Source of the DNA: Podarcis cretensis
Taxonomy: Eukaryota
Direction of reading: 5' to 3'
Assembly (NCBI GenBank): GCA_951804945.1
Contig: OX638149.1
Coordinates: 134,726,001 to 134,790,000, forward strand
DNA length: 64,000 nt
Under the pieces are notes generated by a model. The model saw only the letters and a list, made by a program, of their open reading frames with translations. It ran no database searches and was not told the DNA's origin. The position numbers and the translations under genes are program-made. Below, one piece after another: positions 10,763-61,472 of this stretch (positions are counted from its first letter, which is position 1; every line of letters begins with the position of its first letter).

Positions 10763-10958
10763 NNNNNNNNNNNNNNNNNNNNNNNNNNNNNNNNNNNNNN
10801 NNNNNNNNNNNNNNNNNNNNNNNNNNNNNNNNNNNNNNNNNNNNNNNNNNNNNNNNNNNNNNNNNNNNNNNNNNNNNNNNNNNNNNNNNNNNNNNNNNNN
10901 NNNNNNNNNNNNNNNNNNNNNNNNNNNNNNNNNNNNNNNNNNNNNNNNNNNNNNNNNN
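10763..10958. other. N gap (196 nt)
   Basis: Run of N. Confidence 0.99.
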
Positions 10959-23850: not shown

Positions 23851-25132
23851 ACAACAGAATATGGAATATCATTTGCAGAGCAGGATAACTTTAGAGGTAA
23901 CTTCTATTTTCTATAACATTATCATGCATTGGAAAACAAACCACAATTATTCCCTTTCCTCTATTATTCTAAATGTGTAGCTTGTTTTCCTAAGCTGAGA
24001 CTTCTTTATCTGATTTTAATGTGGACTATGAACTTAACCCACACTATTAAAATGGCTTATCTTTCTTATTGATGAATTCATCATGCGTCAGTGCTGATTT
24101 CACCCAGTGTGCTTCCTGCATGCTTTCTCTTTAAAATATCTGAGTATACATAGTGCCATTGTGCTTAAATTTATACTAGTTTATTTTTTTTTATTTTTAT
24201 GCTATTGTAGCATTCCTGTGAGTAGAACTAATAATACTTGCTCCTTTATTCGCAATTGTATGTCTAATTTGAAACCTTGTTGTTACAAACATGATCTGTT
24301 CTCATCAGCTGAATTTGATAGCTTTTTTCCTATTAACCACACTTAGCAAAGCACTTGAAAGCGGTTTGCCTGTAATGGTTTTCCGAAAGTCTCTGTATAC
24401 TATTACACATCCAATATTCCGAATGTTGGGAGTTCTCTGGTAGATATTGTTCTCGTGGGGGAATTCTTTGAGGGATAAGGATGTCATATATTTATCGGTG
24501 CACAGTTGCTTTGGGTCTCCAGTCCACTAGTGTAAATATGTGTAGGCAGTAATACTAAACAACAAACTGAAGAATGTTCTCTCAAAAGCTTTGCATTTGC
24601 TACTCTGGAAAGGTCTGGTCTGGTGGTTGCCTTTCTGTTGTATTCCCAATAATGTGAGCATGTCTTACTCTTAAGACCCAGGAAAGTTGTATATGTTATG
24701 TGTGGCTGTGTGTTTGCAGTTCAAGTTTCTTTCATTGTGGGACTGCCTAACTAGATATGGAATGTAGCTTGTTCTGTGCAACATTTGGTATGAGCTCAAA
24801 AAGTGAGAATATGAAAAGGTACGAAGTGCTTGAAGTTGCCCATGGACTCATTATTCTTGTTGCTGACATCTGTCTGTCTTGAGAGACAATGGAGTGTGCC
24901 TCTGGGGGTGAAGTCAAAGCACTGCATTAGCAGCACTGAGGCGACCTCCCCAGGGCACAAGCCTGGGCAGGGTGGATGGAGGTCCTCTTGCTCTTGGCCT
25001 CGCTGATGTAATCCAAAGGAAAGCAGAGCCATACATGTGGCACTAGCTTGGCTACAAGAGTTGCTGGAAGGAGACATAAAAGGCACCATCCAACCATCTT
25101 AGGGACTCCACTCATATTTGCTGTACAAATTA

Positions 25133-25545
25133 CAGTGGTGCCTCGCAAGACGAAAAGAATCCGTTCCACAAGTCTCTTCGTCTTGCGGTTTTTTCGTCTT
25201 GTGAAGCAAGCCCATTAGCGGCTTAGCGGATTAGCGCTATTAGCGGCTTAGGGGTTTAGCAGATCAGCTGATAAGTGGCTTAGCGGTTTAGTGGATCAGC
25301 TGTTAAACAGCTTAGCGGATCAGCTGTTAAGCGGCTTAGCGGATAAGCAGATAAGCGGCTTAGCGGCTTAGCGGCTTAGAAAAAGGGGGGGAAAGGAAAA
25401 AAACCCGCAGGAACTCGCAAGACATTTTCGTCTTGCGAAGCAAGCCCATAGGAAATTCGTTTTGCGAAGCACCTCCAAAAAGGAAAACCCTTTCGTCTAG
25501 CGGGTTTTCCGTCTTGCGAGGCATTCGTCTTGCGGGGCACCAATG
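25133..25545. mobile_element. Tc1/mariner-pogo MITE (same family as 416-743) with an expanded internal minisatellite
   Basis: Same TIRs, TA TSD; TAGCGGCT/AGCGGATCAGCTG repeats at 25216-25378. Confidence 0.9.
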
Positions 25546-27739
25546 TACCTTCAGGCAGAATCTTAGCTTCAAAATGCTATGTTACATTGAATGGGTATTC
25601 AGTGATTTCTCAGTCTGGAAAGAAGGTATGGTGGTTTGATCTGATAGTCACAACATACTGAGTGCTAACTTGACATCAAATTAGAAGTAATATTTATGAA
25701 TGCAAACACTTAACTCTAGAGAACATAGTATTTTCAAATGCATTTAAATGGAAAGGTAGAAGAGTGATGTACATGGTGACTTATTATACATACTAATTAG
25801 ATGTTTTGACGTATAACAAATCTGTAAATTTTGACGACTAAAATGTTTCTCTAGATAAGACATTATATGGACGTTTCTTGCTGGTGATTGCTATCTTAAA
25901 TTCAAGGTTGTCCATATTGTGTTTCTATTACAATGTTAACATACATTTTTGGAGTTATATTAAGATTTGAGTGTTACATATTGAAAAGGATTTATTTATC
26001 CCCATGGAACTTATATTCAAATGATGAAAAATTTTCTGGTCACACCTAAGCACAGAGAAAGCTGAAGTTAATGTGGTATCAAACAACAGAAGCCATAATT
26101 GACAAATAATACCCCTCATAAATACTATCAGTCTTTTCAATTAATTTTTGTCTAAAGTTCTAGATATAAAATGATGACCTGTCAACTGACAATGGATGAC
26201 AAAAATTAATAAATTGTCTTCTAAATAGTGTGGACACTTAAGAAAAATTGGGCAGCCAATTTAGCACAGCATGAACCAGGGAGGAACCTTTTGTACTGTT
26301 GCCGTGCCACTAATGTTGTCTGGGCCTTTATTAATGGTGCTTGGCTGCTACTGACAGTTTTGTTGCTACTGGCAACTTTCTTCATTAAAATTAAAGCCAG
26401 CGTCAAATCCCATTAGCTACACTCTGGGTACCTTGGGTGGGGATTTTTTAAACTTCATATACACAGTTTGTGTATAATATGTGCACACACATATGCAACT
26501 TTAATAGCACATTTTTAATATATGTCAAAAGTTGAAGTGGGATAAAAGCAGACCTTTTTCATGGTCATCCACTTATTTTTTAAGTATAAACATATTAAAT
26601 GTCGACTGGGATACAAATTAACACTTTTAAATGCCACACACACCCATGCAATTTGTAGAAAGCTTGTTTTACCAACATGCCTTGTTTGAAGGACAAATGT
26701 ATGAAGCAGGTGAAGAGTTCTTGCATTATGCCTCTTTCACTTGTCATTTTTTGAAACAAGGAACATCCTTAATCCTGTGTTGCCTGCCTTTTGCAGGAAA
26801 CAGTGACTAATCTTGGGGACTGTTGTTCTTACAAATAGAATATTGAAGGACAGTTATTGTGGCTACATAGTTACTAACACAGCTGTCACTTTGATCAGAT
26901 GTAGTGGGAGAAGTTTAAATAACTTTTGAATCAAGAGGACTTTAGGCGACAACATATTAATTCTTGAGAGCAGCATTGATTTCCCCCCTTCCCTCTCCTG
27001 TATTTGTTTTCTCTTACTTACCCATATGAGACAGTGAAATGCCTGTCAGTTTTATTATATCGGTTGTTAGACTGCTGTGGCCCATGGCCTGGGTCCCATC
27101 CTAAATTGCAGTTAATGTTGTACAGGCTTTATAGACTGAATGTGAAGAGTATTTTGTCTTTCTGTTTTTGGTGATTAAAACTGTTAAGTGCACTGTATTG
27201 TTTACTTTTATTATATTATCCTTGTTCTTGTTTTAGTTATATTTGTCCTTCTTTGAGGTTGTAACTCCTCTCTCTACTTATGTTACAAAATAAAAGAAAG
27301 ACATATATGATGGGGAGAACCCATTAAGTGCAAAATAATAATAATCTTTGACCCAGCTCAAACTCATGGTAGCATGCATGTGTATCTAGAATTGAAGACA
27401 GCACATGCTCTTACTTCACTAATTAAAAGATTGTCTAGCTGCTATCTAGTCATAACTGTGTGAGAATGTCCAATAAACTAAAAGGGACGTGCAGTGGAAC
27501 CAACTTCTTGCATTTTGTTTCTAAGTGAGGCATGATTTTTGCTTTGCCAGAAGCTCATAGTGGCCAAGAAATTGGGTCCTTTTCTGCCTACTGTTCAATC
27601 CTGACAGCACAGAAAAATGAAGGAAAACTAACAGAAATAATTTCAGCAGAAATAATGTCAGGTTCTGCATTTAGGTAGGAAGAATCAGTGGCACACATAC
27701 AGGCCAGTTGGCATTTGGTTTGACGTGTAAATAATCTAG

Positions 27740-33076: not shown

Positions 33077-33639
33077 TACTCAAAAAGCTGTAGGTCAGGC
33101 AAGTAGGTGTGGATGAATCTTTAGAATGAATTGCAGTGCAATCATTGCAATAAACTCAGAGAATCAGCACATTTAATGCATCCCATGTCTCTAATCATAT
33201 AGAAAAGATCTGGCTTCATTCAGCATCAGTACAGAGAAAATGGCTTTATCTGGTGTGTGTGATAACACATATACATTTTTCTTTTATACCTACATCAGAC
33301 TTGTAAGACAATGTTTGTTCATAAGCTGGGTTCCCACATAGTTTCAGATAGCACATAACTGAGTGCTCCTCTATACATTATTTTTTTTAACCCACCACAT
33401 AGAAACCTTGCACATCAGAAATTAAGCTACCCTGGAACCCACCTCATTGATGTGTAATTTTCAATAAGAATGGAATTTATATGGAATAGCATTTAGCTTG
33501 AAATTGTACAGTCCAGACCAGACAAAAATCATACCAAATCATCAAACATTCCAGCTATTTGCTAAAATTTAATCCTTGCTAAAGTGATGGAATGGATGTT
33601 TGTTTGTTTGTTATATTTGTTTCCTCCAGAGAACTTGAT

Positions 33640-33806
33640 ACATGGTCTTCCACTAGTTTATTTGCACAGCAGCATTGTGTAGAAGGCCAAACGGAGAGTT
33701 TGTGACTGGCCCAAGGTCACTCGGTGAGGTTTATGTCTGAGTTGGGATTTGAATCTTGGCTTTCCCAGCCTTGGTCCAACACTCTAATCACTACACTGTG
33801 CTGGCT
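33640..33806 (-). mobile_element. MIR/CORE-SINE remnant
   Basis: GTGACTGGCCCAAGGTCAC...GGGATTTGAA...CACTACAC, matching the reverse of a CORE-SINE head and core. Confidence 0.6.
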
Positions 33807-33837
33807 CCGTTTTGGAAAAACTCACTGAATTTTTATG

Positions 33838-34350
33838 TTAAGAACATCAGAATAGTCCTGCTGGATCAAGCCAGTGTTTCATCTAGTCCTGCTTCCTTTT
33901 CTCCCAGTGGCCCATTAGATGCCCATGAGAAGCCCCAAAGCACGACCTGAGCACAGAGCACTCTCCTGTGTGCAGTTTCCAGCAGATGTCGTTCTGAGCC
34001 ATACTGCCTCCAACAGTGGAGGCAGAGGAGAGGCTTCGTGGCTAGTAGCCACTGGTAGCCTTGTCCTCCATGAATTTCCCTAATCTTTTAAAGCCATCTA
34101 AGTGGGTGGCAATCCCTTCCTCCTGTGGGAGCAAGTTCCATGCTTTTACTGTGTGCTGCCTGTAGAAGTCCTTTCTTTTATCCGCCCTGAATCTTCCAAC
34201 ATTCATCTTCATTGGATATTCATGAGTGCTATGAGAAAAGCTTTCCTCTATCCACTTTCTCCATGCCATACATAGTTTTATATACCGATATATACCGATA
34301 TTTCCTTAAACTGAAAAAACCCTCAAATGCCATAACGTTCCTCATAGGGG
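33838..34350 (-). mobile_element. CR1-group LINE 3' fragment (second family); a + strand copy lies at about 54830-55095
   Basis: Minus-strand GRFRADKRK.FY.Q..VKAWNLLP...LDGFKRL.KFMEDK; AAGAACAT-type tail. Confidence 0.75.
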
Positions 34351-34765
34351 AGTTAATGTTTGCATCACACAGTAAGCCATAAGCGACAACTTACCACACA
34401 CAGGCAATTAATAATAATAATCAAATGTATGGACTGCTGCACAGCTTAAAGCCATTGAAGTGGTGTACATGGTAAAAACAGAATAAAACACTGAAACACA
34501 AGCACAACAAAAAAATATCAATTCAACAAACTCAACAATAAAACCATCCATATAAACTCTAAAAACAACAAGACAATTTCATTAGATACAAAATTAGATC
34601 TTCCATATATGATTGGGTTACACCCCAGGGAAAGCCTTCCTAAACAAAAATGTATTCAGTGGACAACTAAGAATCATCACACTTGGTGCCTGTCGAATTA
34701 AATCTGCTAATCAGCAAAATTTATACAAATAAGTTTAAATATAAAAAATGAGTGAAAAGGAAATA

Positions 34766-35190
34766 TGCAGTGTGGTGTAGTGGTTAAGAGCGGTAGTCTT
34801 GTTATCTGGTGAACCGGGTTCGATTCCCTGCTCCTCCACGTGCAGCTGCTGGGTGACCTTGGGCTCGTCAAACTTCTCTGAAGTCTTGCAGCCCCACTCA
34901 CCTCACAGAGTGTTTGTTGTGGTGGAGGAAGGGAAAGGCAGTGGCGTAGCGTGGGGGGTGCAGAGGGGCCCGGCCGCAATGGGCGCAACATCTGGGGGTT
35001 AGGGTTAGGGGGCGCAAATCCACGGGTTAGGGGGCGCAAATCCACGGGTTAGGGGGTGCAAATTACTTGCCTTGCCCCGGGTGCTGACAACCCACGCTAC
35101 GCCACTGGGGAAAGGAGAATGTTAGCCACTTTGAGACTCCTTAGGGTAGTAATAAAATGGGATATCAAATCCAAACTCTTCTTCTTCTAT
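34766..35190 (+). mobile_element. tRNA-derived CORE-type SINE interrupted by a hAT MITE
   Basis: A box TGGTGTAGTGG, B box GGTTCGATTCC, CORE GGGTGACCTTGGGC, (CTT)n tail. Confidence 0.8.
34939..35107. mobile_element. hAT MITE carrying TTAGGG-containing 22-bp repeats
   Basis: Perfect 17-bp TIR CAGTGGCGTAGCGTGGG; 8-bp TSD GGGAAAGG. Confidence 0.92.
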
Positions 35191-35319
35191 TTTAAAATAA
35201 ACCAGAGAAGGAGGTTGAGGGAAGTCCAGGGGGAGGGGAAGATTTTGGATTTGGAAATTATGTTATTTGTTATGATGTAATATTGGATATATGAAAATTT
35301 AATAAAAAATAATTATAAT

Positions 35320-36077
35320 AAAAAAGTAAAAAATCTGGTAATTTATTCCAGAGAGCTGCAACTATAACACTAAAAGCCCAGTTCCTGGTACAGACTAGGT
35401 GCACCTCCAGGGTATATGGTACTCTCTCAGCAGTGTCCCATCTGAGAACACAGTTATTGATATAGTGGGCATGGTGGTCTCTTGGGAATCCTGGCCCCCA
35501 ATTGCTTAGGATGTTAAATGCTAAAATGAGGAGTCTGAACTGTGTTTGGTTGCATTTTGACAGTGAGTACAACTCCTTCCGCAGAGATCTTACATGGTGT
35601 TGGCAAGGGCACCCTAGTTAAAAATCTAGCTGCTGTATCTAGTTTATTGTCCTCATCCAGCCCACAACTGCTGCCAGACCCTGGCCAGAGCCTGCAAGGC
35701 CACTTCTATTTCAGATGTTATGGAGAAATAGAGTGGGGTGTCATTGGCATATGGATGACACTTCGCTCCATATTCCCTAATGATAGATCCCAAGGCTTCA
35801 TATAGTGCTGTGTGGCACTCCATAACCTAAATGCCATGGGGCTGATAAACATTCTGGACCCTGCATGTAAGACTTTCTGGACTCTGCATGCAGGAACTGA
35901 GCCACCATAAAATAGTACCGCTGACACCCGTCTCATATAAGTCCAGGAGGATAACATGGCCAATGGCATCAAAAGATGATGAGAGATCAAGCAAAGTAAG
36001 ATTGCACTCCCCTTGCCCTCATCCATCAGGGCAACCAAGTCTGATTTGTTCCTGAAACCAGGTCTGAATCAAGAGTA

Positions 36078-36114
<37 letters not shown>

Positions 36115-36880
36115 AATAATTTTATTATTTATACCCCGCCCATCTGGCTGGGTTTCCCCAGCTACTTGAGGTGTCTTACAGCACATAAAAAATGGTAAAA
36201 CATGAGTCATAAAAAAATTCCTGATACATGGTTGCCTTCAGAAATGGGTCTAGATAATCAATTCATCCAAGAAAGCCTGCAGCTGCTCTGGCACACCACT
36301 CTCAATTGCCAGACTAGGCTTTTAAAGGAGTGAACATACCACCACCTCTTTCAAAGCAATGGGCACCACTCATCCCTTAATGGCCCTTTCACCACACCCT
36401 GAGGCCACCCAGACACGCCCTACTGACTAGATTTTATTAACCAAGAGAGACAGGGATCAAGGAAGCATGTGGCTGGATACATAACTGACACTGTGTCAGT
36501 GTCTTCAAGCCTCAAGAAAATAAATTGATGCTCTAAAACCTGACCAGATATGGTGTTTGGTTCTGCACCAACTGTGGTGTCAAGATCACTATGAAGCCAA
36601 GCAATTTTACCCTCATAAACTCATCACAGCAAGCCTCCAAGGGGTCCAGGGAAACTCTCCCTGGGACCAATAACCTCTGAACCACTAGCAGAAGATGTGA
36701 CTGAGGCAGCAAAGTAGGCCTTCTTCATGGTAGGCAAACCAGTGTTCAGTTGGCTTCGGCACAAGATTTCTGCCATTTGCGCTCTAGTCCTCACCCAGGC
36801 TATTTTATCACTCACAATTTCCTGGTACCCCAGGGAGTAAAGGGGGCTACACAGAAATAGGGAGGGCATTCAGAAGTCAT
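35320..36880 (-). mobile_element. Fragmented old L2-clade LINE (RT region) with a younger L2 tail and (AAC)n/(AAT)n at 36078-36120
   Basis: Degenerate RT-like sequence (ALMDEG.GSAILL..., FSVIVAALWNKLP) on the minus strand. Confidence 0.6.
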
Positions 36881-37545
36881 CCTGTTGATGGCCCATCTCA
36901 TTTCTCCATTCCAGAGTGATACTTGCGCCTCATTGAGGTCAAGTCTTGCATCTCTGCTGAGATGTTTTGGGGTCTGAGTAAGTAGCACTAACTAAGGGCA
37001 TCGTTATAAGGGGTCTGTGTTATACAAGCAAATGACACTGCTTGATATTGAGTCAGATCTTGGTTACATATAGCCCAGTATTGTCTGCCCTTTGCATTAG
37101 AGGCTATTCAGGGTCCTAGACAGAGAAAGGTCTGCTGAAGGTGGCATCTGTGGCATGCAAAAGGATGTGCTCAGCCATAGATCTGTGGCCCCTCCCCTAA
37201 CAGGAGAAGACCAGGTGAAAGGAAAGAAAGATAAAGTAAACCAGAGAGTAACTAGAAAAATCAAGAAGGTACTCATCAGCCTAAAAGCGCGCGCGCGCAC
37301 ACACACACACAATCCACCTTGCACAGGTTTGAGGAACAGATACATATTATTTTTAACTTGGGACGTTCTCTTATTTCAAAAAACTCATATAGTTCAGGGT
37401 TTAAGGATTGCTCACAAAGCCCTTTTTGGTCCACAACATGAAGTGTGAACCCTTTTTGTGAAATAATATGGGCCACGTTTTTTTTTAAAAAAAAGCTTTC
37501 GTTTTTCTCTCAGTGTTCCAGGTTTTGTTATTCAGTAGATGTTAT

Positions 37546-37741
37546 NNNNNNNNNNNNNNNNNNNNNNNNNNNNNNNNNNNNNNNNNNNNNNNNNNNNNNN
37601 NNNNNNNNNNNNNNNNNNNNNNNNNNNNNNNNNNNNNNNNNNNNNNNNNNNNNNNNNNNNNNNNNNNNNNNNNNNNNNNNNNNNNNNNNNNNNNNNNNNN
37701 NNNNNNNNNNNNNNNNNNNNNNNNNNNNNNNNNNNNNNNNN
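37546..37741. other. N gap (196 nt)
   Basis: Run of N. Confidence 0.99.
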
Positions 37742-37990
37742 AGTCCTGGTAAGGGCTTTGAAGCCTTCACTTGTGTGATTTTCACAGCAGTGAGGTAGGA
37801 ATAGAGGCAGCTAATGACAGGAAGGTCGCTTGGGTTATGTGACCTGTGAGGTGGGGTGGTTAGGTTTAGCAAATAGGGCATCCACAATAACAAGTGTGTC
37901 ACTAACCCTGCCGTGCATAATCGAAGTTTTATAGGATTGTTGGAGATGCTGACAGCTCAATTAAAGTGTAACCCTTTGTACCGTACACCC
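37742..37990. promoter_or_regulatory. Conserved enhancer, probable orthologue of HACNS1/HAR2 (GBX2 enhancer in an AGAP1 intron)
   Basis: GCAAATAGGGCATCCACAATAACAAGTGTGTCACTAACCCTGCCGTGCATAATCG (37869-37923) matches my recollection of the non-human HACNS1 core. It lies in the expected intron, upstream of the 105-bp PH exon. Confidence 0.75.
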
Positions 37991-38899
37991 TGCTAGAATG
38001 ACAGAAATATTACCAACAAAAAAGGAGGGGGCCACAAGGGAACTGGTTAAGGATCCTATATTCTTTTTCACTACTTCATGGAAGGATCTACACAGTGAGC
38101 TGCAAAAACCATCCATTTGTGAAATAGCTTGTCTGGGGGAGGGGGCCCAGTACCAAACATGGATTTTTTTTAAAAAAAGAAGCTTCTATTAAGTGTTGTT
38201 CCTGATGTTCCTATGGAAACAGTTTCGATGAGAATGGAAAGTTTACTTCTGTTTTTAAAGCATTGTGGGGCTCTCTTCCTTCCAGCCCCCCCCCCCCCAA
38301 TCTATACCACTTTTTATATCTTGCTAGAAAACATGATACAAGGTGAAATGACTGAGGGCTGAAGTTGGTTAACTCAGATTTTGGATACAAGTATAAGTAT
38401 TCAACGTATGCTCATATTTTGCCTTTGTGAAAGAATATTCATATTTTCTGCCCTGCAAAATAAATCAAATGTATTAGATTTATACAGTTACTGAATTTTA
38501 TAGAATGTAGTATAATAGGCCATGCTGTTTTCATATCCATTGTAGTCAATTGTGTTGGTGCATAAAATGGTTTAAACTGGGCTAAAGAGCTGCTGATTTC
38601 TATACCCAAAGACATCCCAGTTCCACTGCTGGGTTTATTCAGCACTAAATAAATGCTCCATTGCTAAAGTTAACTACTTTCTTCTTGGGAAATTTGGACT
38701 TTCTCTGATGTTGAGAGATAAACAACTACTTGTACCAAGGGGCTATTAAAACTGCTGCTTATTAGCAGAATGGTGTCTTTGTTGTGGGTAGGAGGAGAAA
38801 CACTGCAGAAAGCAAAGGGAGCTCTGTGCTGCAAAGCAAAGAATGTTGACTAGCCTGATGTTGAACTGAGTATAACTGCTGAGGTTTGAGAGCATATGC

Positions 38900-40045
38900 T
38901 GTATGATAATTTCAATACATTTAAGATCATAGGGCAGCTCACAAAATAAAAACACAAAAATACATACCATAATGACAAACAAAAACAATAGCCCCTGCCA
39001 CAGTTTAAAAGGCTGCAGATTGTTTAATTGGCCAAAGGCCTGGGAGAAGCAGAATGTTTTTGCCTGGCACCTAAGGATATGTAATGAAGACACCAGGCAA
39101 GCCTCCATGGGACGAGCATTCCACATAGAAGGAGCCACCATAGAAAAGGCCTGTTCTCATGTTGCTGGATCTCTTGTGGAGGAGGCAGAAAAAGAGGGGC
39201 CTCAGATGAGGGCCACAGGGTTCGTATCGGTGGTACATATGGAGGAAGTCGGTCCTTCAGGTATTGAGGTCCTGAGCTGTTTAAAGTTATAGGTTAAATC
39301 CAGCACTTGGAATTGGGCCTGGAAACCAATTGGCAGCCAGTGCAGTCAGGCCAGAATTGGCATTATGTGATCAAACTGTATTGCCCCGGTAAGCAACCTG
39401 GCTTCTTAATTCTGCACCAGCTGAACTTTCTGAACCCTTTTTAGAGGCAGCCCCATGTATATCTCATTGCAGTAATCTAACTTAGAGGTTACCAGAGCAT
39501 ACACAGTTACAGATAGGTAGCCATGTTGGTCTGCCATAGTCAAAACAAAATAAAAAAATTCCTTCCAGTAGCACCTTAAAGACCAACTAAGTTAGTTCTT
39601 GGTATGAGCTTTCGTGTGCATGTATCTGAAGAAGTGTGCATGCACACGAAAGCTCATACCAAGAACTATACACAACAGTAGTTAGGCTGTCCCTGCTCAG
39701 ACAGGGGTGCAGCTGGGCCACCAGCTGAAGCTGATAGAAGGCACTCTGGGCCACTGAGGCCACCTGAGCCTCAAGTAACCGCAAAGGATCCAGGAGTACC
39801 TGCAAGGTGTGCATGCTCCTTCAGAGGAAGTGTAACCCCATCAAGAGCAGGCCACCTCCCAGCCATCCGGTCTAGGGAACTACCCTCTAACAGTATCTCA
39901 GGCTTATCTGGATTGAGCTTCAGTTCTCATGCAGGCCATTACCAAGGCAAGACACTGGTCCAGCACTTCCACTGCCTCACCTGCAGATGTAAAGGAGAAG
40001 TAGAGCTGTGTGTCATCAGCATATTGCTGGCACTCCAAAACTCCA
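38900..40045 (-). mobile_element. L2-clade LINE 3' portion (RT YADD motif to tail)
   Basis: LECQQYADDTQLYFSF and LEAQVASVAQSAFYQLQLVAQL; same family as 13925. Confidence 0.88.
39506..39667. mobile_element. Penelope-like element terminal remnant with a perfect hairpin, nested in L2
   Basis: 7-bp TSD ATACACA; perfect 30-bp inverted repeat (39593-39622 / 39639-39668); CTGAAGA...GAAA motif. Confidence 0.7.
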
Positions 40046-40840: not shown

Positions 40841-42651
40841 TAACACTCCCTCTTTTTGTGCCTACTTTTTTCCTTTTGGGGTGCCCCATTCATATATATT
40901 TTTCTTATTACTGTAATTTTCTTCAATTATGTTTTAGGGTTCAACTCCCAACCTTTGGTCTCTGCAGCTAACCTTTTTTCCTCTAAGGGCCATATTCACC
41001 CTTGGCCAACCCTCTGGAGGCCAACACCAGTCGTAGGTGTCACCATCATCTCCTCTCTGGTCATCAACTTATCAGTCTGATGACTGAGGAGGGGACAGTT
41101 CGCATCTTCATCAATGAACTGGACTTTGCCCACCATAGCACCATTTCTCCTTCATTCTGATTTTGCTTCTACCACCAAAATCAATGGGGTCTAGGTACCA
41201 GGAAAAAGATCTTTGGCGTTTTCTAGAAGTTGGATCTATAAGTGGGATATATGCTTCCCATATTGTACATCCATGTAAATGCATACACATATGAAGTGCA
41301 TAGCCAGCCATTTCATATACCACATTCAGTGGCATGATTTGAATAGGTCAAGAACTTTGCTAGCTTCTGAGTAACACTGGGACCTTGGTTTTTCCAAAAT
41401 GTTAAGCATACAACTGTCTCTCTCCCCTTTCCTCACTTTTTTAAGGGGGAAAACCCCCAAGCTGACTGGGGAAATGCCCAGAGCTCAAGATGGGATGGGG
41501 TGGAGAGGTAGGGGAATCTTTTGACGGACAGGTCTATCTTTTAATCACGGTGATTTGGAGAAGGAAAGTTGAAGCAAATAAACAGAGTTGATATTCATAT
41601 GGGTCACCTTTCTCCGAGTTTTTACTGTGAGCAGGGTCGCCTGTTTCTTTCTCAACTGTTATTTCTCCTAACAAACATTTGAAAATCATAGCAGTCTTTT
41701 TCAAACTGATTGCCCTCTTAGGAGAAGGAATGTGGTGTCTATTTTCCTACTCCAAAATGATAAAGTCTGCCCTTGTAGAGGAACCACTGCACCAATCTTT
41801 CTGAAACTAGGCAGATTTTATCCCCTCAGAATGGTGATCCGTGCCTGCAATTTGCATCCATTTTTTAGCAGAAATGTGTTTTTTTTTATAAAAGATTTCC
41901 TGCACAAAAAAACCCTGAATGTATCTGCCTGAAATTCAGTTAACTTAATGCACTTTGGAAAGGCTCCTTTGCCTACATATTCCATCCACTTATGTAAAAA
42001 GAGAGGAGTTTTTAGCTGTTTTTAGATCCACCAACAAAGATAAAATAGAGCTTCAGATTTAACAGATCGAATTTGGAGCTGAATAACAAATTGGATCACA
42101 GTGAAAATTTGGGTTGCTTCCAGATGCTACAGATACAGATAAGGTAAATCATGTAGTCATTGCAAAACCTTACTAGAGGACATGTGTGTAGTATATCACT
42201 TCCCTGATTGGCCAAACACTACTTTTAATTGATCCCAGGTGGGGTTCTACTCGTTAACTGCACATTGTTACCATAACAGTCTTGATGCTGAGAATGGCAG
42301 TGGTCTGGACCATAGTTCTGTGCCTTGAAGGCCAGTATCTGAGGTTGATTGGCTCAGTTAGGAACTCAGACCTTAACAGCAAATGAATCAATACATATTT
42401 GTTGGTAAATAATTGCTATTGAATAGAGCTTTAATATAAATTTATGATTGGTGATTATCACAGCTTTGGGCTATAGTGAGCCACTTAGTGATGGATTTAA
42501 GATAAGACTTAAATTCATTATGTTGTTATTTATTGTGAGTTATTTAAACATTGTATTCTTAACATTGCTTTTGGCTTACAATGACCTCCTGGGACTAGAC
42601 ACAGAATATGTATTCATAGAAAGGTGTTCAAAAGAAAGTAAGTTGCTCTTA

Positions 42652-43014
42652 AAGGTAAAGGTAAAGGTACCCCTGCCCGTACGGGCCAGTCTTGACAGAC
42701 TCTGGGGTTGTGCGCCCATCTCACTTAAGAGGCCAGGGGCCAGCGCTGTCCGGAGACACTTCCGGGTCACGTGGCCAGCGTGACATCGCTGCTCTGGCGA
42801 GCCAGAGCCGCACACGGAAACGCCGTTTACCTTCCCGCTGGTAAGCGGTCCCTATTTATCTACTTGCACCCGGAGGTGCTTTCGAACTGCTAGGTTGGCA
42901 GGTGCTGGGACCGAGCAGCGGGAGCGCACCCCGCCGCAGGGATTCGAACCGCCGACCTTTCGATCGACAAGCCCTAGGCGCTGAGGCTTTAACCCACAGC
43001 GCCACCTGCGTCCC
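42652..43014 (-). mobile_element. Full-length young Sauria SINE
   Basis: (ACCTTT)n tail, tRNA-like head with B box, 12-bp TSD AAGTTGCTCTTA (42640-51, 43015-26). Confidence 0.93.
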
Positions 43015-43386: not shown

Positions 43387-43686
43387 GGGACGTGGGTGGC
43401 GCTGTGGGTAAAACCTTAGCACTTAGGACTTGCCGATCGCATGGTCGGCAGTTTGAATCCCCGCGGCGGGGTGCTCTCCCGTCGTTCGGTCCCAGCGCCT
43501 GCCAACCTAGCAGTTCGAAAGCACCCCCAGGTGCAAGTAGATAAATAGGGACCGCTTACCAACGGGAAGGTAAACGGCGTTCCGTGTGCTGCGCTGGCTC
43601 GCCAGCCTATAGAGTGAGATGAGCGCACAACCCTAGAGTCTGGCAAGACTGGCCCATACGGGCAGGGGTACCTTTACCTTTACCTT
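43387..43686 (+). mobile_element. Sauria SINE with an internal deletion of about 60 bp
   Basis: GGGACGTGGGTGGCGCTGTGG head and ACCTTTACCTTTACCTT tail; lacks the CACGTGACCCGGAAG segment seen in its siblings. Confidence 0.9.
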
Positions 43687-43755
43687 AACTGAAGATTCTT
43701 TGGAAATAATAGTATTTTCTGGCCTGTCTATACCTAGTATTTGGAAGACACAATT

Positions 43756-46160: not shown

Positions 46161-47048
46161 GCAACTCATCCAACATGACTAGACTAGAGAATGCTCTGGA
46201 CAACCCTTGAGATTTGTCTACTATAAAAGTGGAGTCAAGATCCTGGTCAAGGCAAGCAGTAACGCCATAGTGAGGATGCAATGGAGGCAGCAAAGTACGC
46301 CTTCTTTGCTGCCTTCACTGCCACTAGGTAGGCTTGATGATGAGCTTTCACCAGTTTTCGGTTGCATTCAGCCTAGTTTTTCCTCCACTTGTGTTTGAGC
46401 CATCTCCCAACTCAAGGTGTTACAATGCAGTGATGTTATACGAAGACTGCATGTGTATAGAATTTACACAGGTTTAGGAGTGGTGCACTAGTATTCAGTA
46501 AATGCTGTCTTGGGCTCCCTTGGGAGGAAGGATGGGATGAGATATGATATGATATATGATATGATATCATTTTTCTCTAACTAAAATGCCCCTCCTTTTA
46601 AGCAAAGAGTTGCAACATGACTATTTTTGCAAATTAGGGATCACGTGATTGTTTTAAAGCCTGTTTTACATTATTTAAAGACAGTCATAGCAGCCATTAT
46701 TTGAACAGATGAGGCTTCTGTTGTGCGACCACTGATTGTCGTCATCACATCAGCCAGTTAAAGTAACAGTGGAGGCTAATCTGCCCAGTAAGAAACGTGG
46801 TGGGTGTTTGTGATCACTTACTCATCTGCATGATGATTAGCACTGTTTGAGAAAGAGAACTTCTACAAATTGATAATAAACTGCTTTTTCATACTAAAAC
46901 TTCACTTTAAAACATTTACAGCATTCTAAAGGTTAGTTTTGTGGCCTTCACATAAGTCACCTTTCTGCAAGCACAGCTAGATAAAATATGTCCTGTCAAC
47001 AGTGCTTAGTCACTATTGTCCTCAGCTGGAAATGGTGGGGAGAATATA

Positions 47049-47411
47049 AGGTAAAGGTAAAGGTACCCCTGCCTGTACGGGCCAGTCTTGACAGACTCTG
47101 GGGTTGTGCGCCCATCTCACTCAAGAGGCCGGGGGCCAGCGCTGTCCGGAGACACTTCCGGGTCACGTGGCCAGCGTGACAAAGCTGCATCTGGCGAGCC
47201 AGCGCAGCACACGGAAACGCCGTTTACCTTCCCACCAGTAAGTGGTCCCTATTTATCTACTTGCACCCGGGGGTGCTTTCGAACTGCTAGGTTGGCAGGC
47301 GCTGGGACCGAGCAGCGGGAGCGCACCCCGCCGCGGGGATTCGAACCGCCGACCTTTCGATCGGCAAGCCCTAGGCGCTGAGGCTTTTACCCACAGCGCC
47401 ACCCGCGTCCC
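47049..47411 (-). mobile_element. Full-length young Sauria SINE
   Basis: Near-identical to the 42652 copy; GGAGAATATA duplicated at 47039-48 and 47418-27. Confidence 0.93.
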
Positions 47412-49541: not shown

Positions 49542-49763
<222 letters not shown>

Positions 49764-54412: not shown

Positions 54413-55328
54413 TATATGGTTATGGTGTTATACTGATAGATTTGTCAGCTGGGGTCTCATTCACCCTGGAGGGAACACACACTCCCTTGCAAACAGCAGC
54501 ACAACCAAGCCAGGATTGCAGACTTTGCAGCTCCAAATGTCTGTTAATGGCACGCAACTGATAAAGAGAGACAACACCTTCTTTTCTAATAAAGAGGAAT
54601 CTTACTCCAGAATGGATCTGTTTCCGATTTCACCTAACATGACTCAGGAAGCCTACATGATGGACTCATAGAACCATATAATTGTAGAGTTTCACTAGGA
54701 AGAGGATAGTGCAACTCATCTATGTGAGTTTAGGACTTTTTATTTTAAGAGAAAAGGTGATTTAGAGGAGTCACTTTTTGCATGGTATGCAGAAAGCTTT
54801 ACTTTCTATCTCAACGCTAGAACTTGTGGACATAAAACTGGACGTTGGAAGTTTTACTGCAGACCAAAAGAGTACTTCACACAGCCCATAAAGAGGTGTT
54901 GATGGCCACAGACTTTGATGCCTTCAAAATAAGATTCATGGAGGAAAGGATCTATTAATGGCTGCTCCACTCTCAGTTGCTGGGAAATACAAGTGGGCAG
55001 AGTCCTGCATTCAGGCATCCCATGGGCATCTGGTGAGAACAGGAAGCTGGGCTAGATGGGCCATTAGCCTGATCCAGGCTCCTCTTATTTTCTCATGAAG
55101 CTAATAAAGGGTCTCCAAGCCACAGTCCTCTTCAAAATGCCCCAATAGAAGTGGGATGGGATAATTTTAATTATTATAAAAAGAAAGTTCAGCAAAAATT
55201 GAAGATAGTTGTAATCTCTGACAGTAGTCCCTAACTTGGATTGTGCAGTTACTTTTTATTTTAAAATTGCAAAATATTTGCTAACTTCCTCTTAGTCATT
55301 TATAAGCAAAAGTCTATTTCAACACATG

Positions 55329-55744
55329 TGTCAGGGAGAATTCAGAGGAGGAAGTGACAGAAGAGGCGGAGCAGGGGCTCGGGGATGCTATGGTGCCCTT
55401 CAGCCGCCCAGAGACAGAGGAAGCGGAAGAGCGGGCGGATGTTGCAGAGCCCTTCACCACCCAGAGGCCCCGGAAGGGAGCTCAGACTCTGGAAGGGAGG
55501 GGGCTTTCAAATCAGCACAGACAAGGAGGGAAATGAAACATAAGGGTCAAAGATGTCTCATGCAATTTTCCCGCCTCCTTTGTTGGCGGGAGAATCGAAG
55601 GAAACCACTCCCCGAATCTGACTCAACGGATTCAGATGCATAATCCTGAACTGTAGCTGTTTCTTGCACATATGTAATAAAAAATGTAAATATCAAGCCG
55701 ACTGTGCCGGGGTGTTAATGTGAAGGGGAGACACCACCTTGACA
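55329..55744 (+). mobile_element. Gypsy solo LTR
   Basis: TGTCAGG...CCTTGACA; 5-bp TSD ACATG; AATAAA at 55676. Confidence 0.9.
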
Positions 55745-56313
55745 ACATGTTGTACAGCCTTATGTGCAGTGAGCACTAATGTAGTCAAATTATCACATCA
55801 GCACTGCTCTGTTTGCACAAATGCCAAGGGTATCCTCAAAAAGAAAAGCAATGGCTATCAATATAGTGGGTGTATTGTAGGAATTTATTGATTGATTAAT
55901 GTGTTTTGAGTTTAACTTCAACTACCACATTGCCCACAGCTGACTAAGATGAAGTTGCCAGTTAATGATAACTGTAGGCAATTACGTATGTTGTATTTTA
56001 CTAGCACAAGAGATTGTGTGCAGATCTCAGTTTAACAGAAATGCTTGCATGTAGGTAGCAGAAGTAAAGTGTATTTTTGATGCACTATGCTGCTTTACAG
56101 CAATTGCTGTGCAGATATTCAGAACAGATTGGATGTGTTGTTGCATATTATTATTATTTCTGTAGGAATCCGTTTGGTGTACTGAAGTCCTAATGGAATA
56201 TGCCACGACCTTCCCCACACAAACTGACTGCCCAAATCCCCTTGAAAACAGCTCCACAGAAGGTGGTACCCGTGTTAAGCTGTGCTTCTGTCAGCAAGCT
56301 GAGAGCTGTGGGT

Positions 56314-56493
56314 NNNNNNNNNNNNNNNNNNNNNNNNNNNNNNNNNNNNNNNNNNNNNNNNNNNNNNNNNNNNNNNNNNNNNNNNNNNNNNNNNNNNNNN
56401 NNNNNNNNNNNNNNNNNNNNNNNNNNNNNNNNNNNNNNNNNNNNNNNNNNNNNNNNNNNNNNNNNNNNNNNNNNNNNNNNNNNNNNNNNNNNN
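56314..56493. other. N gap (180 nt)
   Basis: Run of N. Confidence 0.99.
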
Positions 56494-58655
56494 AACATAA
56501 TTAGGAGTGGAATGTAAAAAACAAGCGATGGCAGAGGTGCAAGAGCCATGGGGTTCAGGGCATTCAGATGCTCAGTTACCTTGATATGAACACCTTTCGG
56601 GAGGATACCCTCCTGGCTCCGGTGCTTTTTGTATGCTGCTGAATTATGAACGTGGAAAACTTGAGAGGCAAAATGTAAATGGATTTGCAATTACTACTTT
56701 TTCAAGCTGTTGAGGGGCAGAAGATAGCACTTCTGGGGTGGGCCACTATGGAGTGGGCTCTGGGGACTTGTTAAGTGCTGTTTAAAAGTACTTGGCTTTG
56801 AATTACCCTCGTGTCTTGTTAAAGGTTCTTTCCCCCTCCTGTCCCCCCATCTTTTTTTTTTCTGCGATCAGCATTTTCTACAACTAACGTCTAGGGGAGT
56901 TTTCTTTGTAATATTTGCATATCAAAATCAGGCTTGCTATCTTCTCTTTAACACAGCATATTCCAGATGACAGGGTCATCTTCATCTTTTTCTAATGTGA
57001 TCATACAATAAATCACTATTCTGAAGTGGCTATGCTTTTTTGTAACCTTTTATTTCTCCAGGGCAGCAAAATTTGCGATGGAAAAGTGTTGAGATCTTGC
57101 TGGAAGGAAACAGCACTTTGCCAGTTTCCTAGTCTGTGAAACAATTACTGTTATGTACTTTATATACAGTGAAAGGGACTGTTGCATTACACAGTGTTGA
57201 AACATTAAGGAATAGTTTAAGATGACATTTTGTACAGTGAAGTTAGCGTCATAGTTTCATTGAAAAACAGTATTGACATCTCCCCCTGAAACACTCCCCT
57301 CTGCCACCACCGCCTAAAATGTATTTGTGGCTTATATACTAGAAGCCATACTATATTGTACCTGGAAAAGGTGAGGGGTTCATAACATGAGACTGATAAA
57401 ACGGACAGAGAACTACTGGAGCTAGCCCCACAAACAATTATTATGGGGGGCCCAGGCACCTACTGATTTTGTAGAATCTGCAGGAGGTAAAAACACTGGG
57501 TTTAAAACCGCTCCATCGAGCACAATGTCATGATATGTTGGGAGAGAATAATAAAGTTAGCTATCCCTGGTCTAAAAGTTTAGGATACATTTTGAAAACA
57601 TTTTATTTCATTTACATGGAATATACAATCAAGGTTTAATTAAGATTTTAAATTATTTTCTTGTCTCAAGTTGAGCCATGGACACTTAACATGTATGTTA
57701 TAGAAATATGAAAGTGGGGGCTAGTATTGACTTCAAAAGGTAATGTACGCTTTTTGCAGTGATACTGTATGCGATTTGTCAAGACTAGCTTCTGAACTGT
57801 CAATGTCTTTCATTCCTCTCCCTCAGTAATAACCTTTAAAAACAATCATACGACTACACTATTTACCCGGCTTTTTTTCATCCATTTTTCCTTTCTTTGC
57901 AGTTAGATTTTGGAATTAAGTAGTACTGTCAGTGAAAAGCATAAGATGCATAAGAGTGAATTCCCCTACTTTGTACCTCATTGGAGTGGCTTTGCCTCAT
58001 ACCATGCATCTAATTCTGGGCTAATTCTTTCATTGGTGCCTTTTATGCCTTTATGCCTGTTGAAAATTAGGTCTGTTAATTGTGTTCTGCATGACTCCTA
58101 CATTGATGGAGCTTTTTCACATTCATCTGCATTTTATTGTCATATGTCACTTTAATTCGTCTTTAAAAAATACAAGTTTTTTAAAATAAATAAGGTCTGT
58201 ATCATCAATCAAGGCTGTTATACCATGGGGTAGATAGTTTAAAATACTCATTTTAGGCAGGCATCTGAAAACTGTTCTGTAGAATAAGCTAATATAGTTT
58301 CCCACTCTCTGTCTATGCTTTTGCATGTCCATGTGCGTTATGTATAACAAAAATATTACTTGTTTGCAGTCTTTCATATATAGGCTCCAAAGAGCTGCTT
58401 TACATGTACCCATGGGTTTGAGCATTCCCAGTGGGAATTATATACTTTCCTGTTTAACAGCCTAGCGTCTCCTATGCTATGTATAGTCTGCTTTCAGAAG
58501 TTCTCTCAAGTTCAACAGTAGTTTTGCATCTAGAACAGTGCACTGCTGTTTTAATAAATCAACACCCAAAGCCCTGTTGGGCATATGGAACTAGTCATGT
58601 AAGGTCTTTGGATCCTACCATATCAAAATCACATCCATCCTCTCTCCCACATTAA

Positions 58656-58862
<207 letters not shown>

Positions 58863-59976
58863 TAAAGCAACATGACTACAGTCCATTGCTGTTCTATGAT
58901 TTAAGTGTTGCTGGTTTTTTGTATGGAGGATCACTCTATTGTGTGACCCCAACTGCTATCTGAAGTTGTACATTCCAGGCATTGCTTCAGTGTACCTCCC
59001 AAGGTATTCTCACTGGTGTGCAGAATGCAGAACTGCTAAGGAGTTGGTAGTTAGCAACTTCTGTACCCCAGGCAACATTTCTGACCCTACAAGCAACTTT
59101 TTCAACCCCCAAGACCCATTTTGCTAGAGGAGGTGGAGTCTGTGGCAGGGAAAGAAACCTGTGCCCTCTCCACTTTTGAAATGATCAAGAGGGAACAAAA
59201 TACTTCCCCATGGCTCTGCATTGGGATCTCTCTGCATGTTAGCATGTGTGTGTCTGCCTGCATGCGAGAGTAGGTGTTGTGTGTAGTGTAAGAGTGTGGG
59301 GTGGCCACATCCACCAGTGGCAGGCAACAGTGCTGTCTCGGGACAAAAAACATGTCAGCTATCTAAGTCTTGATTTTATGATGCAATGATCGGGGGACTG
59401 ATAGAGCAAATAATCAGATAAAATTTCAGCTTGTGAGTGTTAAAGCACAGGTTACATAAGATGTGTGTTTCCCTCACATTTACCATAAGGTCAGTGGGTC
59501 TTTACTTCTATGACGTGTTTGGAACATCTGATACCTGTTTCAGTGTTTTGTGTTGGAAGCTGATATCTTAAGACTGCACCAGCCTACTTGCGTTGGCAGC
59601 AGCATGTACTTCTTTTATCCCCTGCCCAGTGTGTTGGGCTAAAGACTGTTTGAGACTGCCTAATGGTTTTCATGGAGGCCATGAAGTGTCAAGCCGGCCC
59701 AGCAACAAGGGTCCTCCAACACCATGCCAGAAACCAGCTTGGTTAGAGATGCTGGAAGGCATAAGGGTGGTTGATAGACCAGCAGCATCCCCAGTCTGCC
59801 TCTGGTCCAATACCAGGTGCAGATCTTCTAAATCCATTCCAAGATCAAGTGGTTTTCTGTTGAGGTGGCGCTTGTATGAACAATAGCACTTGCTGCCCTC
59901 AGCCCCTTGGTCTAGTCTGATGCTGAATCGAGAACCCAGATGGGCACAATTGAGTTAGGTCAGGGCCACCTAGCAT

Positions 59977-60099
59977 TAAGGTTACCAGACGTCCCCATTT
60001 CCCGGGGACAGTCCCCAGATTTACAAATCAGTGCCCATACAAAATCCCTTGAAGTTGAAAAGTGTCCCCAGATTCATTGAAAAAAATCTGGTAACCTTA
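59977..60099. mobile_element. hAT-Blackjack (MER81-like) MITE
   Basis: TAAGGTTACCAGA / TCTGGTAACCTTA TIRs; flanks ACCTAGC(A/T); internal GTCCCC motifs. Confidence 0.8.
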
Positions 60100-60109
60100 A
60101 CCTAGCTCA

Positions 60110-60400
60110 CCTATCCAAGTCGCAGTAAGGCAAGCCTTTCATCCACAGTCAAGTCATGGACAAGCATGATCTTGATACAGGCAAACCTGGTATTCAGTGA
60201 CAGCACCTTCAAACTAGACAGCTCAAATGATAAGGTAGCAGTAACTTCCAGAAGAGTGGGAGTGCTGAAACAGGACAGTGACCAAACATATGGGTCTCCA
60301 CCCCAGATAACAGTCAGCTCCTCCACTCCAACTATACCTGCTATCTTCCTACCCCCATCACATCCTAGCACCATCAAATGTCATACAATACAGCAGGAAC
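60110..60400 (-). mobile_element. Degraded LINE endonuclease N-terminus (L2-like)
   Basis: LKVLSLNTRF...K..LVHDL.VDE resembles an APE domain start. Confidence 0.5.
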
Positions 60401-61469
60401 ATTAGGACCACAGATAATAAACAACCACTTGAAGTCTGAAGCTGCCACTTGAGTCACTTTCCACAAACCAACAATATTTTGAATCCCAAACAAATGTTTT
60501 ATCTTGCTGTTTCTACTCATATAGTTCACTATGTGAGGGGGGGCGGGTGCGGGTGGATTCTTATAATTTCTAACGTCAAAACTAGTGTGCTTCAAAACAA
60601 AATACTGTGGTGGCCAGTTCATCATATGTTAAAATTTGTAAGCAGGGACTGGTTTTTCTGAGTACCAAATGCAGGCACAGAGTGTTTGGGGAATGGTGCC
60701 CACATGCAGAAATTGTAGTTTGAAAGGACATGGACATGTGGTGCAAGAATGGGAAAGGATTGGGTCCCTGCTGGTCTGGATTTTGCCTGTAAAATGTATG
60801 CTCTATATGCAAGAATTAGTATAGGGTGCATCATATGAAGCAGCTTTTTTCTTTAAAAGAATAAATGCTTAAAAGAGTCTTTTAAACAAACTTTTTAACA
60901 TAATACAGGGGTTACACCTGTGTTCCAGGGGGCAACACCTGTGACCCTCCATATATTGTTAGGATTACAACTGTCATGAGCCCCAGCCAGCATGGCCAAT
61001 GATCAGGAAGGTTGGGGGTTAAAGTCTGGCAACTTCTGAAGAGCCACAGGTTCCCTATTTCTGAGCTACGAGAACACATGAAGGGAAAAGGTGGACCCAA
61101 ATTTTGTAGGTGGAATTAGTGAAAATTGCTTCCAAGTTGCTCAGGGGTTTCTCCAGTTGGCCTATTTTCCAAAGGCACTGTAATGAATCCATCTTTATCA
61201 ATGGGGGGATAACAATTTGCTTTTTCATATGACATGGGGTGGGAATTGCAAGAAGGTAGTTTGATGACCTGTTTTGAGTAGTTTACCAAAATATAGGGAG
61301 AAATGAAAGTGAATGTAAGTTAGCAGCATCTTAAAGTTGTTGCTCATGTTTTAATCCAAGTCATTCTAAAATTTACCAGATGCAAGTCCTTGTAGTTTGG
61401 AGCAAGAACAAATTTGTCTTAGCTCCCACTATGCTTATATGACATTGAAATCTAATCTGTTTGTTCTCA

Positions 61470-61472
61470 TTA

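Follow-up and report, generated by a model that had tools for sequence, protein, structure and literature searches.

Does the lizard Podarcis cretensis carry the human-accelerated enhancer HACNS1/HAR2, and, if so, what would the element do in an animal that lacks the human substitutions? The first-pass annotation of the window (the whole 64,000-nucleotide stretch of DNA analysed here) had proposed that a block beginning at position 37742 is the lizard orthologue of this enhancer, lying in an intron of AGAP1 (CENTG2). HACNS1 is described as highly conserved among lobe-finned fishes and tetrapods (PMC8758698, Supplemental Note), and Pollard et al. 2006 reported very high conservation across vertebrates (PMC1599772). 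We tested orthology with the HACNS1 primers and the allele table printed by Dutrow et al. 2022 (PMC8758698), and the comparison with the mammalian copies covered 64 primer-covered bases and 16 single sites.

Three HACNS1 primers each gave exactly one match with at most 3 mismatches across the 64-kb window; all three matches fell within 37797-37936 (140 bp), in the same order and orientation as in the published amplicons. The footprint of the forward ChIP-qPCR primer, which is listed for mouse, chimpanzee and human (PMC8758698), lies at 37797..37818 on the + strand (20/22 bases). On the - strand, the mouse reverse primer matches 37864..37885 at 20/22 bases (21/22 by eye against its chimpanzee version), and the chimpanzee-specific reverse primer matches 37917..37936 at 17/20. 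In a shuffle control, the primers for the 37797, 37864 and 37917 sites found any match in 0/100, 0/100 and 1/100 shuffles, respectively. The window is identical to the chimpanzee primers at 58 of the 64 primer-covered bases (about 90%, counted partly by eye). Ungapped projection of the 546-bp human element through its hg19 coordinates (PMC8758698, Supplementary Data 1) placed the element at about 37515-38060; its readable part, delimited by the primer matches and the projected coordinates, is 37742..38060 on the + strand, with an approximate 3' end. Further 5', two copy-number primers can be placed by eye in the right order, at 37401-37420 (12/20) and 37519-37539 (13/21); about 0.2 such pairs are expected by chance, and an extension of the element 5' of the N gap (37546-37741) is at most tentative.

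The host gene was determined from two exons. A 105-bp coding exon bounded by AG and GT (49542..49646, + strand) encodes the first part of a split PH domain and matches Podarcis AGAP1 at 35 of 35 amino acids. This exon had been pointed out as a PH exon 11.6 kb from the annotated string, and it does lie at that distance downstream and does match a PH domain, that of centaurin-gamma 1 (PDB 2RLO, E 1.6e-12). Two Podarcis proteins named AGAP1 were its only 100% identical matches among the best 120 of 4021. The next coding exon (169 bp, AG/GT-bounded, 58686..58854, + strand) was found by tblastn with Podarcis AGAP1, and its amino acid identity was 56/56 with Podarcis, 53/56 with Rhineura, 52/56 with Anolis sagrei and 46/56 with Xenopus. 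The exon preceding 49542-49646 was not found in the 64-kb window by tblastn with Podarcis AGAP1, which places the element in an AGAP1 intron of more than 49 kb. The intronic location was thus confirmed, with two AGAP1 exons downstream on the same (+) strand. We take human HACNS1 to lie in the same AGAP1 intron, with human AGAP1 presumably on the + strand as well. The paralogues AGAP2 and AGAP3 were considered as hosts and rejected, since both exons are identical to named Podarcis AGAP1. These identities point to Podarcis or a close lacertid as the source of the DNA, the named matches including no lacertid from outside this genus.

The PH exon has a feature of its own. At 49563-49568 it encodes SCRSL in place of the SGKSL found in other AGAP1 proteins, and, among the 32 named matches listed, 31 of them with the motif, CR was confined to the two Podarcis AGAP1 proteins. 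The corresponding residues are GK in Rhineura, Anolis and frogs, CK in one caecilian protein and SK in Podarcis AGAP3. Judging by these proteins, two residues of a basic PH-domain loop that otherwise hardly varies have undergone a lineage-specific change. Around the 105-bp exon, the sequence of a Rhinatrema protein listed as AGAP2 is of the AGAP1 type, and this protein is possibly misnamed.

We next consider the bases that changed in humans. The published allele table lists 13 human-chimpanzee differences in 81 bp, 10 of which are flagged as fixed human-specific (PMC8758698, Supplementary Data 2), and the orthologous cluster in the lizard is at 37854..37934 on the + strand (hg19 chr2:236774003-236774083). 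The 55-nt string quoted in the first-pass annotation is present at 37869-37923 on the + strand; its equation with the substitution cluster was correct in that it lies within the cluster, but it spans only 9 of the 13 sites. At the register fixed by the primers, the lizard has the chimpanzee base at 12 of the 13 sites and the human base at one (G at 37854), whereas registers shifted by -6 to +6 gave at most 5/13 chimpanzee alleles (P about 2e-6 for 12/13 at the fixed register). The ancestral, A/T-rich state that had been proposed for this sequence, with the suggestion that the human-specific sites be scored, was therefore found at all sites except 37854. Five of the 13 sites lie inside primer footprints and are hence not independent of them; of the remaining eight, seven are chimpanzee-type. 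The differences between the human and chimpanzee reverse primers map by eye to 37867, 37881, 37917, 37918 and 37934, which are projected table sites, and the register (hg19 236774003 = 37854) is thus independent of the allele fingerprint. There is no indel across 37864-37936 relative to human HACNS1. Table sites outside the cluster, placed without gaps, carry the chimpanzee A at 37980 and 38019 and neither allele at 37775; in view of possible indels, these three are left out of the allele count.

The spaced allele fingerprint was rejected as stand-alone proof of orthology: at 2 or fewer mismatches it has 3 matches in the window against 2.88 expected, and 0.27 matches at 12/13 or better are expected by chance across the window. 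Because it is not significant window-wide, it is informative solely at the primer-fixed register. At the exceptional site, 37854, the G stands in a G-rich run whose nearest A is more than 4 bases off, and it could stem from a parallel change of A to G or from local realignment of the stretch. The same G is the last base of AGGTGG, a hexamer that follows TGACCT (37840-37845) at a distance of three bases. The published table gives a chimpanzee-only RARA motif at the site corresponding to 37854 (PMC8758698), and a nuclear-receptor half-site may, speculatively, have decayed here.

We found no sign of HAR-like acceleration in the lizard lineage, as judged from 12/13 ancestral alleles and about 90% identity in the primer footprints. 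At the level of these alleles, the comparison shows that the bases changed in humans are otherwise fixed across amniotes. A coding or RNA gene reading of the block was also rejected: Rfam gave 0 matches to structured RNA families at the gathering score across the 64-kb window, and the open reading frames of at least 100 amino acids over the block all cross a run of N. Taken together, three collinear primer matches, 12/13 chimpanzee alleles and the AGAP1 host uphold the proposed orthology, and the block from 37742 to about 38060 almost certainly represents HACNS1/HAR2 in a lacertid, as the orthologue of a non-coding element that is deeply conserved and lies within an intron of AGAP1.

The limits of the block called for some correction. 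Its start at 37742 had been given as if it were a boundary of the element, but it is the first base after an assembly gap of 196 N (37546..37741), which the first-pass annotation did not mention and which lies inside the projected 5' part of the element, hiding about 196 of its 546 bases (roughly one third). The block had further been called TE-free. This holds to the extent that self-BLAST found no repeat common to the block and the rest of the window within 36167-39032, the third longest self-repeat-free stretch in a window of which self-repeats cover 19%. The 249-bp block has 46% GC and 4 CpGs. With two other N gaps, at 10763-10958 (196) and 56314-56493 (180), the window has three in total; the assembly is a draft, and gap sizes may be estimates. 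Two further self-repeat-free stretches, 54413-61470 (7.1 kb, including the 169-bp exon) and 33080-36075 (3.0 kb), may hold other conserved non-coding elements of the AGAP1-GBX2 region.

Among the repeats, an element of about 360 bp with an (ACCTTT)n tail is present in three young copies (42651-43014, 43406-43687 and 47047-47411) that are 86-96% alike, two of them forming an inverted pair about 400 bp apart. We take it to be the Sauria/Squam1 SINE. Squam1 is abundant in lacertids (PMC10702118). Another element occurs twice, at 414-745 and 25131-25547, with 92% likeness and an internal 8-bp tandem array of the ATTAGCGG type.

The bases at which lizard and mammals differ were also compared. Over the 64 primer-covered bases there are six differences from the chimpanzee primers (37806, 37809, 37868, 37924, 37925 and 37927), and five of these six are G/C in mammals and A/T in the lizard (sign test P 0.06). 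Of the CpGs in the primer footprints, one of four is kept in the lizard (by eye). This small and unpolarised sample hints at a gain of G/C at the locus already in mammals, or else at a loss of G/C in lizards.

What, then, would the element do? Since the non-human alleles are retained in the lizard, the element is most simply read as a GBX2 enhancer for the pharyngeal arches with weak early-limb activity. By analogy with mouse, the lizard element is probably such a long-range GBX2 enhancer. From within AGAP1 it would act on the promoter of the neighbouring GBX2 gene, as the mouse and chimpanzee orthologues do; it would be open in the pharyngeal arches and weakly or transiently active in the early limb bud; TALE homeodomain factors (MEIS/PBX) might feed in through putative TGACAG sites; and the 81-bp module would retain the ancestral state of those bases that raised limb activity when they changed in humans. 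We infer the target gene, tissues and factors in the lizard, the first two from mouse.

The published work on which this analogy draws is as follows. When the human allele is knocked into mouse, H3K27ac rises both at the element and at the promoter of Gbx2, and the TAD of the element holds no other coding promoter (PMC8758698). The chimpanzee and mouse orthologues show weaker but significant limb H3K27ac, are marked in the arches and lie in the same TAD as GBX2; at E10.5 the mouse orthologue carries H3K27ac, and in the E11 limb it is poised (PMC8758698). Both orthologues are accessible from E9.5 to E12.5, the chromatin of the chimpanzee allele being open from E9.5 onward in mandible, arch 2 and forelimb (bioRxiv 10.64898/2026.09.08.750211). 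The human fragment (VISTA hs521) drives expression in limb, branchial arch, eye and ear (PMC3826498); the limb signal of the chimpanzee fragment is weak and proximal (PMC4009813). By the mouse coordinates (PMC8758698), GBX2 is more than 200 kb from the element and would thus lie beyond the 64-kb window.

We weighed several other readings of function against the GBX2 enhancer for arch and early limb. One, which we consider quite possible though short of the expected outcome, is that the lizard element is kept for roles outside the limb (arch, ear, eye, hindbrain) and does nothing in the limb itself, so that snakes and limbless lizards would retain it intact. Activity of hs521 in branchial arch, eye and ear besides limb (PMC3826498) is consistent with it, as are the poised state of the mouse orthologue in the E11 limb and the Gbx2 knockouts, for which no limb phenotype is reported (PMC8758698). 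In the study of squamate limb loss, the text and 24 of 25 supplements do not mention Gbx2, HACNS1 or hs521 as snake-diverged, though the lists there are largely coordinates (PMC6226452). However, the chimpanzee orthologue is accessible in forelimb as early as E9.5 (bioRxiv 10.64898/2026.09.08.750211), and H3K27ac on the mouse orthologue at E10.5 (PMC8758698) likewise argues for some early limb activity.

A second reading, which we consider possible but less likely than not, concerns the 81-bp module: it would be a repressor whose conserved A/T bases hold limb activity low and which GC-biased substitutions disabled in humans. This repressor or GC-biased-change model is reportedly owed to Sumiyama and Saitou 2011 and to Duret and Galtier 2009, and it is set out in PMC10691551 and PMC4009813. 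The 12 of 13 ancestral alleles kept in the lizard make the cluster sites as constrained as the neighbouring primer-covered bases (53/59 identical outside those sites), and it follows that the human changes struck constrained positions. Moreover, both a TGACA core (37897-37901) and an ATAAT (37917-37921) would be disrupted if the human alleles were present, which fits the repressor without proving it. Constraint, however, does not tell activator from repressor sites, and Dutrow et al. read the human changes as a gain of sites, 12 of 15 of them creating predicted sites (PMC8758698). The repressor module and the arch and weak early-limb GBX2 enhancer are compatible, the latter being our best explanation for the element as a whole.

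Motifs in the block bear on the factors. Candidate TGACAG hexamers of the PBX/MEIS/PREP type occur on the + strand at 37815..37820, 37950..37955 and 37999..38004. The first is common to mammals by primer sequence, its TAATGAC being included in the forward primer footprint (37797-37818); the second and third are motif matches in the lizard sequence. The TGACA core, at 37897..37901 on the - strand, holds cluster sites 37899 and 37901, and the human alleles would destroy it. Three TGACAG in 319 bp were reached in 0 of 194 N-free tiles of equal size (mean 0.23), a post hoc excess to be read with the caveat that 672 of 1000 shuffles of the block hold some hexamer three times; GGGTTA is as frequent in the block as TGACAG. 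TGACAG is a known PBX-MEIS/PREP site, and MEIS, PBX and HOXA2 co-bind in branchial arch 2 (PMC6411007). These matches hint at MEIS/PBX input through the TGACAG sites, as a lead only. Counting against a TALE-site reading, the published allele table, in the part available, does not include MEIS or HOX among the sites lost in humans (PMC8758698). At 37893, the human allele would turn the lizard CAAGTG (37891-37896) into CACGTG. CACGTG is presumably an E-box, which fits the MAX, CLOCK and HEY sites predicted in the published allele table.

A wider reading built on these motifs seems unlikely. It holds that the element is an ancestral, MEIS/PBX-HOX-driven enhancer of arch and proximal limb, whose TALE/homeobox cores (37897-37901 and 37917-37921) were fixed from lizard to chimpanzee and erased by the human burst of G/C, with G/C and CpG gain from early mammals on and the human-type base at 37854 a parallel change in lacertids. 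If true, this ancestral grammar would make the loss of constrained sites, rather than gain alone, the likelier source of human limb activity, and it names specific bases. Very unlikely, in our estimate, is that in lizards the target is AGAP1 itself, or another gene, instead of GBX2. The element does lie inside an AGAP1 intron, and the target assignment comes from mouse knock-ins only, but the sole other gain of H3K27ac in those mice is at the promoter of Gbx2, and the TAD has no further coding promoter (PMC8758698). Finally, that the block is a chance resemblance, a paralogue or a decayed relic is extremely improbable: the allele fingerprint alone does have chance-level matches elsewhere in the window, but three collinear primer matches, about 90% identity over 64 bases and the correct host gene speak against it.

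The value of the finding is modest: a famous human-accelerated enhancer has been located in a lacertid genome. It is an expected orthologue in one more species, its conservation across lobe-finned fishes and tetrapods being already in print; an equivalent copy could be obtained from any tetrapod genome, and here an assembly gap falls inside the element. The worth of the lizard sequence as a deep outgroup had been overstated. Chimpanzee, macaque, orangutan, marmoset and mouse had already established the ancestral state (PMC8758698), and mouse equals chimpanzee at 18 of 22 differing HACNS1 positions (PMC8758698, Supplemental Note). Since primates and mouse settle it, the lizard adds little to allele polarity. 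A comparison of limbed and limbless squamates likewise becomes less promising because non-human alleles are weak in limb. In the debate over gain versus loss, the lizard allele can serve as an outgroup, and Dutrow et al. ask that outgroup orthologues be tested in vivo (PMC8758698, Discussion).

Among CC-licensed articles in PMC and bioRxiv, we found no lizard or snake study of HACNS1, and the available parts of PMC8042745 and PMC10702118 hold nothing on the element. The pleiotropic conserved non-coding elements implicated in squamate limb loss by Roscito et al. 2018 (PMC6226452) are of the same class as the lizard element. The tegu limb ATAC-seq and snake divergence scores of that study would cover the HACNS1 orthologue, which the available parts do not name (PMC6226452).

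Compared with the known orthologues, the lizard element shares its AGAP1 locus, table strand and primer sites with human HACNS1/HAR2/2xHAR.3/VISTA hs521 (hg19 chr2:236773664-236774209). It differs from the human element in that just one of the 13 cluster sites has the human allele, in being not accelerated as far as tested, and in lacking the human-created E-box, with CAAGTG at 37891-37896. The chimpanzee orthologue (panTro4 chr2B:241105499-241106044) is much closer, with the same base as the lizard at 12 of 13 cluster alleles and 58 of 64 primer-covered bases; at 37854 chimpanzee has A and lizard G. The chimpanzee orthologue and that of mouse (mm9 chr1:91610534-91611083) are the best functional proxies for the lizard element, each an arch-marked enhancer with weak limb activity.
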